Assembly (NCBI RefSeq): GCF_000372725.1
Contig: NW_005201381.1
Coordinates: 307,953 to 371,952 of the forward strand
From: Emiliania huxleyi CCMP1516
Lineage: Eukaryota
Direction: 5' to 3'
DNA: 64,000 bases
The notes under the pieces were generated by a model. The model was given only the letters and a program-made list of their open reading frames with translations. It was not told the origin of the DNA and did not search any database. Both the position numbers and the translations under genes were made by a program. This document shows positions 34,567 through 44,985 of this stretch, piece by piece (position 1 is the first letter of the stretch; each line of letters begins with the position of its first letter).

Positions 34567-35847
34567 TCATATGTTCAAGAAGTTCGAGAGGCGGCGCCGG
34601 CCCTTCTTCGTCAGCTCGTGGCCGCTGCCGAGCGCGTCGAAGACCTTGAGCAGCAGCAGACGCGCCGCGCCATCGGACCACGCCTTGTCGCGCCTCACGA
34701 TGAGCAGTAGCTCGTCGATGGCGTCCGCCTGTTCCCCCGACACGAGCAGGCGCTGCGCGAGCTCGTACCGCGCGGCGTGGTCGTCTCGGTCCGCCTCGAG
34801 CGCCAGGCGGAGCTCGCTGACCGGGCGGCCGCCTTCGGGCGCGTCGACAGCGAGGGCCACCGCTGCGATCGCCTACCGTAGGCGCAGCTGGACACGCTCC
34901 GAGCGTGGTGGTGTGAGAGGGGGGGGGGGGGGGGGGATCACCCCGCCCGCCGGGATGGCGCGCCTTCCTCACGGGCGGCGCCTCAAGGTCTGCCGCGTGG
35001 TTCTTGGTCAGGTCGGCGACGAGGTCCTGCGCTGCAGAGAGCTGGTCGTCCTGCAGCGCGCACAGCGCGAGCCCGGCCTTGGCGGCGGCGGCGAGCTCCG
35101 GCAGCGCGCAAATCTCGGCGTACCTGGGCGAGCGACGGGGGCGGGGCGGTGTGCCAAAGACTGCCTGCCCGTCCGCAACGTGCAGTGCTGCGCACTTTGC
35201 TGCGGCGGCCGGGATGTCGCCGCCCTCCAGCAAAGCCGCAGCCTCCTCGAGCGCCTTTGGGCCGGACGCGTCCGGTCCGCCCGCGAGCGCGACGGCCTTG
35301 TCGACGAACTCCTTGACCTTGTCGTCCGGGAGGACGCCTGCCGTCACAGCACGGCGGCGTCACACCCCACTCCTGCTCTCGTCCCCGCTAGCGGCGGACC
35401 CTTGAATGAGTCGACAATCTTCCCGCCGTGCAGGAGCATCACGGTCGGAAGCGACGCCACCTGCAGCGCCTGCGCAATCTCCGGGAGATTGTCCACGTTC
35501 ACCTTTGCGAGCCGAACCGTCCCGCCCGCCGCAGTCACCAGCGCCTCGAGCTTTGGCGTCAGCTGCTTGCAGGGACCGCACCAATCGGCGTAGAAGTCGA
35601 GGATGACGGGTCCGCCGACGGGCGGCGGCGTCGCAGAGGCGCGCACGCACAGATCGTCAAAGTCTTGCGGGCTGCGCACCTCCACGATGGGCAGCGTAGT
35701 CGAGGTGGCGGCGGCGGCGGCGGGCGGAGGCGGCGGCGGCGGCGGCGGCGAAGCGTGCGTCGAGAGGTGACGATGGGCCGCCCCGCTAAGCGCAAGATGG
35801 TGAAGACGACTCGCAGGTCTCAGCACGCGCAGGGCTGCGCCCGTCAT
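34567..35847 (-). CDS. Thioredoxin + TPR protein (YbbN/CnoX-like), likely organelle-targeted, spliced
   Basis: PVILDFYADWCGPCKQLTPKLE, LAKVNVD. C-terminal DDHAARYELA...AIDELLLIVRRDKAWSDGAARLLLLKVFDALG..HELTKKGRRRLS. Arg/Ser/Ala-rich N-terminus. Confidence 0.9.
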
Positions 35848-36055: not shown

Positions 36056-36467
36056 CAGGTGGCGTTTATTTTTGCTTGGCCGGGTATCATGATGAAATTC
36101 TGCAAAAACCTGACCGGCCCCTGCCCTGCCCCTACCTACCTACCTACCTACCTACCTACCTTACTTATGAGAAACTAAAAAAGAAATCACGGGATGGGTG
36201 AAGGTGGGGTACTATACCAACTAGAGTGATGGTTGGTGGTACTCTCCTGCATCCACAGTCCTTCTTGTGACATGGGAGGCCACTCTCAAGCCCTACAAGC
36301 ATCAGATCACCCATTTGGGGAGGATTGACATCGTGATTTCCGCGGAAAATTTCTTTTTCTGCTGTGAAAATTCCAGCTTGAAGAGAGGGAAAAACCCGAC
36401 GGGAGGGCCCAGACCTACCCTTCCTACCCCGTCATGATACCCGGCCAAGCAAAATAAACGCCACGTG
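36056..36467. mobile_element. MITE with about 37-bp TIRs and 4-bp TSD
   Basis: caggtggcgtttatttttgcttggccgggtatcatga / tcatgatacccggccaagcaaaataaacgccacgtg. TTCG at 36052-36055 and 36468-36471. Confidence 0.85.
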
Positions 36468-36503: not shown

Positions 36504-39479
36504 ATGATGCGCTCGAAGGCTCCCTCTGTCCTCGGCAAGCGGCCGCCACGCCGCGAGACGTTCGAGGGCAGCCGCACGCTTCCTCCCTCGCGGGCGCTAA
36601 CCGACGGCGCCATTGCCGCGCTGAGCAAAGAGGGAAGGCCGGCGGACGGCACGCTCGATCCGCCGGCACTGCTGCAGGTGGTTTTCCTGACTCGACAGGA
36701 GACTACAACACCAGGCGCCGCGCGGTACCGCCTTCTCCTCTCCGACGGCCGACACACGAGGCCCGTAATGCTCGCAACAAATAACCACCACCTAGTCGAG
36801 GGCGGCGCTCTTGCACCGAATGCTCTCGTCCGGCTGCGGGTGTGCAAGAGCGTGAGTGTCGCGGGCAAGTCGCTGCTCATAGCGAGCGACGTGGAGCCAG
36901 CGGGGGAAAACGACGGCGTCCTCGGCACGCCAAGCCCGTGGGAAGAGCGTCCGCGGGAGGAGACGCCGCCACCAGGCAAGGGCGTGGCCACGGGCGGAGG
37001 CGGGTCGGTGTCAAGCCTCTTCACGACTGCGGGCGGCGGTGCCGTGCACCTGTCGGAGCGCGGCCGTCGCCGCGCGCAGCAGGCGCTGAGGGAGACCGCC
37101 ACCGACCCGCTGACACCTCCCCCTCTGCCGCCGTGCGTCGGGCCAGCTGCGGCGGCGAGGGAGGCGGCGGCGGCGGCGAGGGAGGCGGCGGCGAGGGAGG
37201 CGGCGGCGAGGGAGGCGGCGGCGGCAGAGGGGGTGGCGGCAGAGGAGGCGGCGGCGGAGGAGGCGGCAGCAGAGGAGGCGGCGGCTGCAGGGACGGCGGC
37301 AGCGGCGGAGGCGGAGGCCGCGGATGCGGCGGCGAGGGAGGCAGCGGCGAGGGAGGAGGCGGCGAGGGAGGCGGCGGCAGCGGCGGCGGCAGGGGAGGCG
37401 GAAGCGAGGGAGGGTGCGGAGGCAGGGGCGGGTGGCCGCAGCAGGCGGCGGCGCAAGCCCGCATCCCCTGCACTCAAGGCTCTGGTCGGGATGGGGTTCG
37501 ACGCCGAGGCTAGAGATCAGCCGAGATCAGCCGAGATCAGCCGAGATCAGCCGAGAATCCGGAATGTGTTCGAGGCAGAGGCTGCCGGCGCGACGCTGCA
37601 CAAGACACGCCCACGACACGGCCAACAGGCAACACGTTCAAGACACGTCCGAGACACGTCCGAGACGCGTCCGTAGGCCGCCCGCGCAGCCCTCGCCTCG
37701 AGCGGCGGAGACGCGCCTCGTGCGACGGAGCTGCTGCTCTCTGCGCCAGCGGCGGAGGCAACTGCCGCCACGAACCCCGGCGGTGGCGCCGCGGCGGCAG
37801 CCGAAGGCGGACGCGAGTCTGGCGGCAGAGGTAGGAAGGCCGGCGGCAAGGCTGGCGGCAAGGCTGGCGGCAAGGCGGCGGTGGAAGGGGTGGGGATAGG
37901 GATCGAGGCGGGGACGGGGGCGGGGGCGGGGGCGGAGGCAGGGGCGGAGGCGGGGGCGGAGGCGGAGGCGGGGGCGGAGGCGGGGGTGGGGGCGGGGGCG
38001 GAGGCGGAGGCGGAGGCGGAGGCAGGGGCGGAGGCGGGGGCGGAGGCGGAGGCGGGGGCGGAGGCGGCGGCGGACACTAGCGCTGCAGTGCTTCAGACGT
38101 CGGGAGGTGACACTGCCGAGCCCGCCGCCAAGCCAACCGCCTCAAGGCCCAAGCCCGCTGCCGCCAAGCCCACCGCCGCCGAGGCGGAGGCGGCGCGGCC
38201 GCCGGCCAAGCGAGCGCGCGGCGCGACCTGGAAGGGCGCCCGGGGTAAGGCGGGGGAGGCGGAGCGGGAGGCGGCGGTCCAGGCGGGGGAGCGGGGGGGT
38301 GGCGGGAGGGCGGCAGCCTCCGCCCGAAAGGCGGCCCCTCCCCGCCCGCCCGCCCGCCCGAGCAGGGTCCGCACCGTCGTCGCGCTCGGCGCGCGCATCT
38401 CGCACCGCACGGGCGTCCGTCCGACTCTTCCGCCCCGACCCGCAACACTTCCTCCACCTCTCCACCCCTCCAGGCGCCGACCTCGCTCCGGCAGAGGCGG
38501 AGGCGGTGGCGGCCGCCGCCGCCGCCCTCGGTGCGCGCGTGCACACAAAGGGCGAGAGCCTCCCTCAAGGCTGCTCCCACGTCGTCATCCGAGAGGGCGC
38601 GACGCGGCTGCCGCTGCGCGCCTACTTCGCCGCCGCCGCGGGGTGCTGGACCGTCACCGCCGCTTGGGCGTGTCCCCTCCCTTGAAGCGATGGCGCGGCG
38701 GGCCAGACGAGCCGTCTCGGAGCCTTCCCCGGAGGCCCGCGTAGGTGTTTCGTTCCCTCGAGGCGGGGGAGTGGGCTTGCCCGGACGAGTACGAGGCGCG
38801 GGCCGGAGGCGTCCGCGAGGCGCGGCTGGCGCGCGCACTGACTGGGGCGGGCCCGCTGGCGGGTCAGACGGTCTGCTTCTGGCGCTGGTCGTTGCTGCCC
38901 GCCCTCTAGCTGTGAACAGCGTCTCTTCACACCTCGAGCTGTGAACAGGCGCGGGTCGCCGCTGCCCGCCGCGACGCTCGCAGCGCTCGTGCGGTGCGCG
39001 GGCGGCGAGGTGCTTGCCCGCCCTCCCCCCCTCCCGCCTCCTCGCCTCTGCTCGCGCCCCATCCCTTTCTCGCCTCGCCGCCGCGCGTCGCCTCTCTCGC
39101 CCCGAGCCCCCCTCCCTCCGCGTCCAGGTGAGCGCCTCGCCGCGCGCATGCACCCTCATCGTCACCGACGAAGCCGACAAGGTCCCCGTCAGCGTCGCCA
39201 GGGCGGCGGCCGGCGCGCCAAAGGCCGCCGCACCGAGGCAGCCGCGCGCCTGTGAGGAGGGGCGCCTCCCCACGCGCGCTGTCTGCCGAGCAGGTACTCA
39301 CCCTCAAGGCGCTCCTCGACGCCATCTGCGCGCCCCCGGGGGTGGAGATCCCGCCCACGTCGGCCGAGGGCCAAGCCGAGGTGGGCGAGGGCTCAGCCGC
39401 GGAGGTTGGCGGCGACATGGCGCGGTCGGAGGGCGAGGAGGGCGAGAGCGAGGACGGCGACATCTCGGACGAGTATTGA
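36504..39479 (+). CDS. RPA70 N-terminal OB fold + BRC-like repeat + UBA + tandem BRCT-like protein (spliced)
   Basis: LTDGAIAAL..PALLQV..RYRLLLSDG....VMLAT..HHLVEGG (RPA70N-like); LFTTAGGGAVHLSE...RAQ (BRC-like); LKALVGMGFDAE|AARAALASSGGD..RATELLL (UBA); CSHVVI...LRAYFAAAAGCWTVTAAW (BRCT). Confidence 0.7.
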
Positions 39480-42110: not shown

Positions 42111-42456
42111 TGTCCTGACTCTGACAAACAAACAGGGCCATCATTTTGCCAGGGCTCCAGGCCCCAAATGACGTGTGAGTGTTAGATTTGTTTGGTATTG
42201 CTAAAAATCTCTCTCTGACTCTGTGCAACAATACACTCACACACACGCCCGCGCGGCTCACGCACTGCGCGACCCCCCGCGCCCTGAGAAAACAGCAGCC
42301 GTACAACACAAGTGAGCCCCCAGCCAGCAGCCCCGCACGACGCAGATTGCGCCCTCGCACGCCTGCACCTTCTCAGAGGTTCGCGCCAAAACTTTTCTTT
42401 CACAAAAAGAAAACCATGGTACCAAGGACGATCAAAAAAAAATCACAGCGCGTCCG

Positions 42457-44985
42457 ATGGTGGCGGCGGCGGCGAGGGCGGCGGCGGCGGCGGCGGCGGC
42501 GGCGGAGAGGGACGCGAAGGCGACGGCAGAGGCGGAGAGGGCGGAGGAGGCGGCGAGGGCGGCGGAGGCAAGGGCGGAGGCGGCGATTGCGGAGGCCGCG
42601 GAGGTGGGGTCGGCGGACGTGGCGGCGGGTGCATCTGGGCGCCAGCTGATACTTGACGAGGTCGGCACGGGTATCGTGGAAGCGGCTGAATGTGGCGACG
42701 AGGAGAGAGTGCGGGCGCTCCTCGAGAGAGGCGTGGAAACTGACGAGACGTACACCACCTCGGATGGCAAGACTACTGGCGTCACGCTGCTGATGCTCGC
42801 CGCCGCGCTCGGACACGAGGCGATCGTCGAGATGTTGCTGGAGCACGGCGCGACGGTCGACATGCAGGACAGCAAGGGCATTACTGCGCTCATGTACGCC
42901 GCCATCAAGGGGTGCGTGCCCATCGTGAAGCAGCTGCTGCAGCAGGGCGCTGATATCGACTTGCCAGACTCGCTGTTCGGCCGCACCGCGCTGATGTTCG
43001 CAGCACTCTTCAACCGCCCCAAGGTCGTGCGCTACCTGCTGAAGAGGGGCGCGGACCCAGAGAAGCGCAACATCGATGGCGAGACTGCGCTCGAGCTCGC
43101 CACGGAGAAGGGCAGCAAAGAGAGCGCCCGGGTGCTTGACAACCTCCTCAGCCGAGGGGGGGGAGGCACGGGGCAGGGGTCAACCACGGGGGAGGGGGAC
43201 GTTGTCGCAGAGGCTGCTACGCTGGGCGATGAGGCGGCGGTGCGGGAATCGCTCGATGGGGGCGGGCAGAAGATCAACGCGACCTTCAACGACGGCACCG
43301 CGACCGGCCTCACGCTGCTGATGATTGCGTCGCAGTGGGGGCACGCGGACATGGTCGACATTCTCATTCAACGAGGCGCTACGGTCGATCTCAAGGACAG
43401 CGAGGGCCGCACCGCGCTGATGGCGGCCGCGACGAAAGGGCACGGGCGAATCGTGGAGACGCTGCTCGACCACTCCGCCGAGGTCAACCTGGAGAACACC
43501 ACCGGAGGCACCGCGCTGATGTACGCCGCCACCAAGGGGCACGAGCACATTGTGCACACGTTGCTCGGGCGCGGCGCCGCGGTGGACCACCGCGCCAGCG
43601 ACGGCGCAACTGCGCTGATGAATGCGGCCTACTATAACCACCCCGGCACCGTGTGCTGCCTGCTGCAAGCGGGCGCCAAGTTGGACTGGCGCGACGAATA
43701 CGACCGCACCGCGCTGTCCATGGCCAACCGCCGAGGCCATACCGCATGCGTCGAGATCTTCAAGGAGCACCTCAAAGGGCTGACGGGGGACGAGAGCGCG
43801 CGCAACCTGGCGGACGAGGCCGAGGCGGAGGAGCGCCGGGCAGAGGCTGAGAAGAAGGCCGCGGCAGACTCGGCGGAGGAGCGCCAGAAGGCGGCCGCGC
43901 GACGGGCAGAGGCAGAGGAGAGGGACATCGTGACCAAGCAGATCCCACTCGATGTCGTCTCCGCCGTCAGGCGAGGCAAGGAGGCGGACGAGGAGAGGAC
44001 GCTGGCATGGATCGAGAGCGGCGGGCAGATCAACGAGGGCTTCGTGGACGGCGAAGCGGCCGGCGTCACGCTGCTGATGGTGGCCACCATCTACGGGCAC
44101 GAGCGGTTGGTCGACACGCTGCTGGAGCGTGGTGCTAGCGTCGACCAGCAGAACGAAAACGGCTTCACCGCTCTGATGTACGCGGCGCACACCGGTCACG
44201 AGGGGCTGGCTGACAAGCTGCTCAAGGCGGGAGCAGAGGTAGACCGACGGCCCAACGATGGCGGCACCGCGCTGTTTCTCGCCGTCATGTTCGACCACCC
44301 TGCCGTCGTGCGGCTGCTGCTGGCGGCCGGTGCGGACCCAGAGGCTCGCAATTCGAGGGGCAAGACAGCGCTGCAGATGGCCAAGAGTTTGCCAAAAGAC
44401 AAGTGCGGTGCCGCGGCTGTGGTCAAGGAGCACTTGGCCGCCTTGAACGCTTCGAGGGAGGCGGATGCCGCGCGGTGCGGTGAGGCGCTGCTGGCCGAGA
44501 TTGAGGCGGAGGCGGAGGCGGAACGCGCCAAGGAGAGCAAGGGGAGCAGGAAGGCCAAGAAGAAGAAGAAGAGGGGCAAGGGTGGCGGAAGCGGCGCGGC
44601 TGGACCGTCCAGCACCGCTCCGTCGGGGGCGGACGGGGCGGGGGTGGGGGTGGAGGCGGAGGTGGGGGCGGCGGCGGGGGCGGGGGCAGATTCGGCCGAG
44701 GAGGACGGGAGCGGACAGGTCCGAGAGGCGGGGGAGGCGCAAGAGGCGTCACCGCTGCCCGAGCCGCCTGAGATCTTCGTGTGTCCCATCACCCAGGAGC
44801 TGATGCAGGACCCCGTCATGGCGACCGACGGGCACACGTACGAGCGGCACGCCGTCGAGCGCTGGTTCGCGACAAGACTCACGAGCCCAAAGACAGGCGC
44901 GGCGCTTGACCTGGCCTTGCTTCTGCCCAACCATGCCATGCGGCACCAGATTATTGAGTGGCGCGAGGCGCATGGATGGAAGTAA
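42457..44985 (+). CDS. Ankyrin-repeat protein with C-terminal U-box (E3 ligase-like), intronless
   Basis: Many GxTALMxAA..GH..IV..LL..GA repeats. U-box PEIFVCPITQELMQDPV...DGHTYER.AVERW...TSPKT...LLPNHAMRHQIIEW. Confidence 0.95.
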   Translation: MVAAAARAAAAAAAAAERDAKATAEAERAEEAARAAEARAEAAIAEAAEVGSADVAAGASGRQLILDEVGTGIVEAAECGDEERVRALLERGVETDETYTTSDGKTTGVTLLMLAAALGHEAIVEMLLEHGATVDMQDSKGITALMYAAIKGCVPIVKQLLQQGADIDLPDSLFGRTALMFAALFNRPKVVRYLLKRGADPEKRNIDGETALELATEKGSKESARVLDNLLSRGGGGTGQGSTTGEGDVVAEAATLGDEAAVRESLDGGGQKINATFNDGTATGLTLLMIASQWGHADMVDILIQRGATVDLKDSEGRTALMAAATKGHGRIVETLLDHSAEVNLENTTGGTALMYAATKGHEHIVHTLLGRGAAVDHRASDGATALMNAAYYNHPGTVCCLLQAGAKLDWRDEYDRTALSMANRRGHTACVEIFKEHLKGLTGDESARNLADEAEAEERRAEAEKKAAADSAEERQKAAARRAEAEERDIVTKQIPLDVVSAVRRGKEADEERTLAWIESGGQINEGFVDGEAAGVTLLMVATIYGHERLVDTLLERGASVDQQNENGFTALMYAAHTGHEGLADKLLKAGAEVDRRPNDGGTALFLAVMFDHPAVVRLLLAAGADPEARNSRGKTALQMAKSLPKDKCGAAAVVKEHLAALNASREADAARCGEALLAEIEAEAEAERAKESKGSRKAKKKKKRGKGGGSGAAGPSSTAPSGADGAGVGVEAEVGAAAGAGADSAEEDGSGQVREAGEAQEASPLPEPPEIFVCPITQELMQDPVMATDGHTYERHAVERWFATRLTSPKTGAALDLALLLPNHAMRHQIIEWREAHGWK

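Follow-up and report, generated by a model that had tools for sequence, protein, structure and literature searches.

Can a complete BRC repeat of the kind that binds RAD51 be carried by a scaffold that is neither BRCA2 nor an enzyme, and what would such a protein do? The question is raised by a seven-exon gene on contig NW_005201381.1 of Emiliania huxleyi CCMP1516, within a 64,000 nucleotide (nt) stretch of GC-rich eukaryotic DNA (positions 307,953 to 371,952 of the contig; 'the window', to which all coordinates refer). A prediction made from the letters of the window alone (the original prediction) had described the locus as a single gene for an unusual repair scaffold that would link RAD51, ubiquitin and phosphopeptides. 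The locus is one gene for one protein of 796 amino acids (aa), intron 4 being inferred, and its features are given in Table 1. The product appears to combine an RPA70N-type domain, a single BRC repeat, a UBA domain and an MCPH1-like BRCT pair, and it is, on balance, probably an adaptor in the DNA-damage response through which RAD51 is brought to marked chromatin, much as MCPH1 with one added BRCA2 repeat would do.

The BRC repeat

The peptide that the original prediction had put forward as BRC-like was present as quoted, and its sequence suggests a full two-module BRC repeat. The FxxA module reads F173-T-T-A176, with T175 also kept, and is followed by the hairpin hydrophobics V181 (+8) and L183 (+10) and then by a helix; A194-L195-R196-E197 occupies the position of the second (LFDE) module, with one bulky hydrophobic residue and the final acid. 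The residues at -4 (V), -2 (S) and -1 (L) match the extended hairpin of Leishmania BRC1, a repeat whose second module is dispensable (bioRxiv 2022.01.25.477309, excerpt).

The BRC consensus of the original prediction, a pattern fitted after the sequence had been seen, matched once in the six frames of the window, compared with 0.01 matches per shuffled set (200 sets) and none in 20,000 shuffles of the protein. PF00634 was the only Pfam family matched by the 42-aa piece, and a PDB search with the BRC peptide alone gave no hits. Querying 1.84 billion proteins by phmmer with aa 27-201 returned 93 hits, 35 of which were scanned with Pfam; 30 were Rep-A_N proteins and five were BRC-repeat proteins matched over the window peptide. 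Four of these five lay far above the PF00634 cut-off and the other lay just below it, with a BRCA2 OB1 domain. From the five proteins 62 repeats were cut by pattern and scored with one protein left out at a time, and the window peptide equalled or exceeded the median held-out repeat in all five tests, scoring like true BRC repeats. On the whole window protein the BRC profile gave 29.2 bits, compared with at most 0.5 in 86 decoys and at most 6.1 in 1000 shuffles. A chance FxxA motif was rejected. The repeat was unchanged in P0001 and P0002, proteins from other assemblies that are 97-99 % identical to the window protein. The BRCA2-like protein P0025 was also seen to possess five BRC-like repeats with Leu in place of the FxxA Phe, plus a BRCA2 OB1 domain.

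Co-folding was carried out with a stand-in RAD51 from another organism, encoded by metagenome locus L047, one of 74 loci fetched by a short motif. The RAD51 of this locus is intact, 340 aa long and matched to human RAD51 at E 7e-147; its ATPase core was folded with a 40-aa peptide without alignments. The score was 0.80, compared with 0.32 for the best of three controls; of 78 solved complexes 51 attain the mark used, as do 2 of 108 mismatched pairs (71 of 105 and 2 of 126, respectively, for eukaryotes). At least 91 % of contacts were common to the runs, and the partner pLDDT (predicted local distance difference test) was at least 73. F173 and A176 formed the best-defined predicted contacts, in the FxxA site of the stand-in RAD51. 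On the peptide side the predicted interface also took in aa 194-195, and on the RAD51 side positions 205 and 251, which in human RAD51 belong to the lining of the second pocket (bioRxiv 2022.01.25.477309, excerpt). The RAD51 link of the original prediction thus agrees with the sequence and with the co-fold, and it stands as a prediction.

Eleven RAD51 loci formed a group 76-100 % identical to L047 in GC-rich, aquatic-looking metagenome records (L008, L018, L019, L030, L036, L037, L041, L046, L047, L065 and L074). The RAD51 motif scan of viral contigs gave no match.

The RPA70N domain

An RPA70N-like OB fold without the DNA-binding domains of RPA had been proposed, and both parts of that proposal held. 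PF04057 (Rep-A_N) matched aa 32-126 with 38.5 bits (cut-off 26.7), the best PDB match of the domain was human RPA70N (E 7.7e-7), and 13 of the 14 PDB matches were RPA70 entries. In the Atlas, RPA70N clusters scored 0.93, with TEBP-beta/TPP1 clusters close behind (0.92). Alignment placed R74, R76 and K122 on human RPA70N R41, R43 and R91, and R64 at or beside R31; three of the four key groove arginines stay basic, and human K88 is lost (V119 in the window protein). The groove arginines are required for binding acidic-hydrophobic partner motifs, and the affinity of RPA70N for single-stranded DNA (ssDNA) is very weak (PMC10479964, excerpt). Pfam found DBD-A, DBD-B and DBD-C in the genuine RPA1 proteins among the hits (P0015 and P0028, for example), and in none of the window pieces, the 796-aa model or the seven relatives described below; a paralogue of RPA1 with DNA-binding domains was rejected on this absence.

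Separately, Pfam revealed proteins with two to seven tandem Rep-A_N domains in which no RPA DNA-binding domain was found, and one fusion of Rep-A_N with a protein kinase (P0003-P0010, P0013, P0014, P0050, P0069, P0075 and P0026), so RPA70N would be a mobile module in several lineages.

The BRCT region

No single exon piece matched a BRCT family in Pfam. When spliced, the C-terminal region was 41 % identical to that of the relative P0056 (E 7e-22), which had been found via RPA70N alone, and the first BRCT repeat was above the Pfam cut-off of 21.3 bits in two of the seven relatives (P0097, 26.2 bits; P0100, 24.6 bits), the other five lying below it. All PDB matches of the relatives' C-terminal region were BRCT proteins, the best being microcephalin (E 2e-4 to 5e-4), and weaker matches of the BRCT region included the kinetochore protein KKT4 and SLF1. 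The Atlas placed the region with tandem-BRCT and MCPH1 clusters (0.90; MCPH1 at rank 2). The evidence for the second repeat comprised a weak BRCA1 match extending into it (E 0.17) and a likeness between the two repeats of 16.4, which was equalled by 4 of 100 shuffles and is not significant alone. A PDB match of exon 3 alone to talin (E 0.35) was dismissed as chance. These results point to an MCPH1-like BRCT pair in which the first repeat is supported and the second is weak. The original prediction had two BRCT-like regions following long Ala/Glu linkers; its first repeat stands, but the two repeats are adjacent (aa 566-750), and the linkers lie between BRC and UBA and between UBA and BRCT.

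The phosphate pocket was located by alignment to SLF1 T13, G14 and K56 and to 53BP1 R1811 and K1814. SLF1 uses Thr-Gly plus Lys (PMC10598736, excerpt), and in 53BP1 an Arg three residues before the Lys reads the free C-terminus (PMC4688034, excerpt). The window protein has G573-A-D, R621 at the Lys position and L618 at the position of the carboxylate-binding Arg; in its relatives the Ser is displaced by one position, the Lys position holds Arg or Cys, and the carboxylate-binding position holds Leu.

UBA domain and C-terminal tail

Intron 1 divides the probable UBA, as had been predicted. On a profile of the UBA segments of three relatives the spliced form scored 20.6 bits, compared with 3.9 bits unspliced and at most 12.0 in 1000 shuffles, and the MGF loop is kept in all four lineages. 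The basic cluster that ends linker 1 (aa 314-318) is a possible nuclear signal.

The earlier account had missed a conserved tail, which is added here. All four lineages share the ending D-G-x-[IL]-S-[DE]-E-[YF]-stop after an acidic run, preceded by 45 to 150 unalignable residues, and the same ending was found in none of 94 other proteins compared. The S-[DE]-E-[YF]-stop resembles the tail of gammaH2AX and is also of the acidic-aromatic motif type that RPA70N binds (PMC10479964, excerpt). The gammaH2AX tail, pS-Q-E-Y-COOH, is bound by the BRCT pairs of MDC1, MCPH1, PTIP and 53BP1 (PMC4688034, excerpt). To judge from the motif, the BRCT pair or the RPA70N groove could hold the conserved tail in cis.

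Relatives and origin of the repeat

Further searching, together with cluster look-ups, brought the number of relatives to seven, spread over three clusters, and all seven keep the BRCT region. Six of them carry UBA, RPA70N, linker and BRCT region in one chain and in that order; P0097 is a shorter member of the cluster of P0100, without UBA and RPA70N. The order of the first two modules differs, RPA70N being first in the window protein and UBA first in the relatives. The shared modules make the scaffold a family, so the domain set of the original prediction stands, but the scaffold is not confined to this genome.

BRC profile scoring detected no BRC repeat in any of the seven relatives. The repeat is therefore lineage-specific and so far confined to this species. 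Lack of FxxA in orthologues, named in the original prediction as a refutation, is thus partly borne out; it refutes a family-wide role, and the repeat itself stands. The repeat was probably gained in this lineage from a BRCA2-type gene rather than lost in the relatives. Contig scans for the family gave none among 597 metagenome stretches, none among nine stretches in viral contigs and one among 599 in prokaryote genomes, and this lone match was dropped as chance, being an unrelated metabolic-enzyme-like frame that shares a short Ala-rich stretch.

Each of the modules is known. The literature covered, which included few subscription journals and no supplements, held no report of the combination, of a complete BRC repeat in a non-enzyme outside BRCA2, or of the tail, and on that coverage all three appear to be new; the supplements of comparative surveys on BRCT or BRC proteins may contain such proteins.

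Gene structure and transcript support

Five of the six introns are of the GC-AG type and one (intron 5) is GT-AG; GC-AG introns with short internal repeats are in keeping with a haptophyte of the coccolithophore type. The stretch was present in 14 of 17 listed runs (five studies), all taken as RNA by guess. Introns 1, 2, 3, 5 and 6 were seen as joints in transcript-like contigs, those for introns 1, 3, 5 and 6 in all of four runs from four studies and that for intron 2 in three of the four; two further runs had joints for introns 1, 5 and 6 beside contigs in which intron 2, 3 or 4 is kept. Intron 4 was not among the listed joints and is inferred because 25 unplaced letters precede exon 5 in two contigs and because the alignment to P0056 is ungapped across that junction. 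Together with the open 796-aa frame and the relatives that have RPA70N and BRCT in one chain, these joints bear out the single gene originally proposed. Two runs from other organisms were uninformative, X15 yielding no contigs at all and X16 nothing beyond short repeats of 80 % likeness. Nine coding differences were listed across six runs, none of them inside the BRC repeat. A search at near length for relatives with RPA70N and BRC returned only P0001 and P0002, and a word-based search for longer ones gave none among 6964 candidates of 588-2000 aa, and no full-length protein.

Introns 4 and 1 carry short repeated words (38909-38948 and 37513-37556, respectively): an 11-mer occurs twice in intron 4, giving two possible acceptors, and a 10-mer occurs in tandem in intron 1. 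These words are taken to be common genome-wide because many unrelated contigs were attracted to them.

Table 1. Features of the gene, in window coordinates
Feature	Position	Strand	Remarks
Seven-exon gene	36504..39479	+	one 796-aa reading frame, sole stop at end (exons joined)
Exons 1 to 7	36504-37508, 37677-38388, 38474-38667, 38745-38881, 38949-39009, 39128-39223, 39294-39479	+	
RPA70N-type OB fold	36597..36947	+	aa 32-148
Single BRC repeat (putative)	37008..37097	+	aa 169-198
Linker 1, Pro- then Ala/Glu-rich, low-complexity	37098..37451	+	between BRC and UBA
Probable UBA	37464..37742	+	aa 321-357, split by intron 1 (37509-37676) just past MGF loop
Linker 2, Ala/Gly/Glu-rich then Pro/Lys/Arg-rich	37743..38366	+	between UBA and BRCT
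First BRCT repeat	38367..38798	+	aa 566-655, exons 2-4
Probable second BRCT repeat	38847..39338	+	aa 672-750, exons 4-7; conserved in all relatives
Acidic C-terminal tail	39426..39479	+	ends D-G-D-I-S-D-E-Y-stop

Proposed function and alternatives

As an adaptor, the protein would dock F173 and A176 of its repeat into the FxxA site of a RAD51 monomer, with the helix of the repeat laid on the second RAD51 site, as in the predicted complex. The BRCT pair and the UBA would keep the protein at damage sites by way of acidic or phosphorylated histone tails and ubiquitin, and the RPA70N groove may bind acidic-hydrophobic motifs of repair and checkpoint proteins, as it does in RPA. As ssDNA-binding domains are missing from the protein, loading of RAD51 onto DNA would fall to a partner. 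Either the BRCT pair or the RPA70N groove might find a ligand within the same chain in the conserved S-[DE]-E-[YF] tail.

Several observations weigh against this interpretation. The repeat reached 12.7 bits against PF00634, below the cut-off of 20.3 (E 0.09), and Gly at +4 replaces the usual Ser after FxxA, a loss linked to weaker binding (bioRxiv 2022.01.25.477309, excerpt). Its profile test was partly circular, because the five source proteins had been found via the window peptide, and the repeat is missing from all relatives. The co-fold used another organism's RAD51, and peptides lie outside the calibration of the tool; as like complexes have been solved (BRCA2-RAD51 in the PDB), a pass means likeness, not binding, and may reflect complexes that the tool has learnt. 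The 3' half of the UBA gave 12.4 bits against the PF00627 cut-off of 22.4, and the UBAs of six relatives (13.5-20.4 bits) were all under it. AlphaFold2 models of the BRCT region were of low confidence (pLDDT 37.8 and 41.0). The phosphoserine pocket is degenerate, one of three positions being basic or hydroxyl-bearing as expected, which makes canonical phosphopeptide reading doubtful and weakens the phosphopeptide link of the original prediction, and the window protein has no S/T-Q site. Contigs retaining introns 2, 3 or 4 were seen in runs X11, X12 and X13, and such retention would cut off the BRCT pair and the tail. None of the listed contigs spans the whole gene, and 37146-37406 and 37881-38078, two Ala/Glu repeat tracts, are unbridged in them.

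The intron-retaining contigs cover 38376-38930 and may represent unspliced RNA, regulated retention or DNA.

The two unbridged tracts, and the failure to find a full-length protein among the candidates of 588-2000 aa, are what would be expected if an RPA70N-BRC-UBA gene and a separate BRCT gene had been merged only in the model. This is very improbable, as the reading frame is open through both tracts, both were flagged as repeats that had been skipped, no stop interrupts the first of them in P0001 and P0002, and six relatives have RPA70N and BRCT in one chain. A protein that works in a family of adaptors independent of RAD51, with the repeat as a recent and nearly idle insertion in a loose linker, would fit the absence of BRC from all seven relatives, the greatly varying linker lengths, the movement of the UBA relative to RPA70N, and the degenerate BRCT pocket with its weaker matches to KKT4 and SLF1. 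We think it doubtful, because neither BRC module appears disrupted and the two keep their register across 25 residues; the nine listed coding differences also spare the repeat, though nine are too few to show selection.

The repeat might also bind RAD51 and restrain it, a lone BRC sequestering monomers or stripping filaments at ubiquitin-marked sites. RAD51's own motif faces competition from BRC A-motifs, which also disrupt filaments, and BRC-like motifs occur in RECQL5, MCM9 and FIGNL1 (PMC11229353, excerpt); moreover, working BRC-RPA70 fusions rely on the ssDNA binding of RPA (PMC11329725, excerpt), which is missing in the window protein and so leaves an inhibitory role open. Pfam, on the other hand, found no helicase or ATPase module in the window pieces or the relatives, and the closest BRCT match, MCPH1, stabilizes RAD51 filaments (PMC7498314, excerpt); restraint therefore has a minor share of our expectation, and recruitment of RAD51 by the adaptor is favoured. 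As a speculation to which a similarly small weight is given, the family may consist of self-gated scaffolds, in which a free RPA70N would recruit the usual partners of RPA without ssDNA, the gammaH2AX-like tail would shut the BRCT pair or RPA70N for as long as no damage mark displaces it, and a complete BRC repeat would have been captured in one lineage, thereby folding the MCPH1-BRCA2-RAD51 relay into a single polypeptide.

Comparison with known systems

MCPH1 is reported to recruit BRCA2-RAD51 to damage sites, to contact RAD51 and to stabilize filaments (PMC7498314, excerpt). Among PDB entries it gives the best match to the BRCT region; the match, however, covers about 35 residues, the window phosphate pocket is degenerate, and the window protein lacks an N-terminal BRCT and adds RPA70N, UBA and BRC. 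A strict MCPH1 orthologue was rejected because the N-terminus is RPA70N in the window protein, or UBA and then RPA70N in the relatives, and not BRCT. With BRCA2 the window repeat shares FxxA and hairpin, with a putative second module in register, and the same RAD51 sites are predicted, whereas the window protein has a single repeat and carries BRCT, UBA and RPA70N. The BRCA2 helical domain and the OB folds that bind DNA and DSS1 were found by Pfam in none of the exon pieces or the seven relatives, and a BRCA2 orthologue was rejected accordingly. The likeness to RPA70 lies in an N-terminal domain above the PF04057 cut-off with three of four groove arginines basic; the window protein is free of the ssDNA-binding and trimerization domains of RPA70.

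Engineered BRC-RPA70 fusions, which restore recombination via the ssDNA binding of RPA (PMC11329725, excerpt), likewise unite a BRC repeat with a portion of RPA70 in a single polypeptide. The part present in the window protein is only the protein-binding N-domain. RECQL5, MCM9 and FIGNL1 are motor enzymes. They have in common with the window protein a RAD51-binding A-motif outside BRCA2, as far as the excerpt of PMC11229353 goes, but the window protein has no enzyme domain and its repeat scores as a complete BRC.

If the repeat binds RAD51, the gene would represent natural capture of a complete BRC repeat by a scaffold that is neither BRCA2 nor an enzyme, and also a case of RPA70N used apart from RPA. 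The repeat-less relatives offer a ready comparison for a RAD51 mediator or inhibitor arising by domain capture, and the conserved tail suggests mimicry of a histone damage mark that the protein might itself read. The organism is likely to be hard to manipulate; the contacts of the peptide with RAD51 and of the tail with the domains are small, cheap biochemical tests.

Neighbouring sequences

Just upstream of the start codon, between two divergent genes, about 340 nt at 36056-36467 are flanked by terminal inverted repeats that match perfectly over 23 nt and at 94 % over a further 17 nt, a unit that looks like a small non-autonomous mobile element. The divergent neighbour (34570-35847, minus strand) encodes thioredoxin and TPR_20 domains according to Pfam, with nothing that would connect it with the repair gene, and we take it to be a CnoX/YbbN-like chaperedoxin. 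Downstream, a long open frame on the plus strand (42316-44985) encodes many ankyrin repeats and a C-terminal U-box, and its product is a probable ubiquitin ligase.

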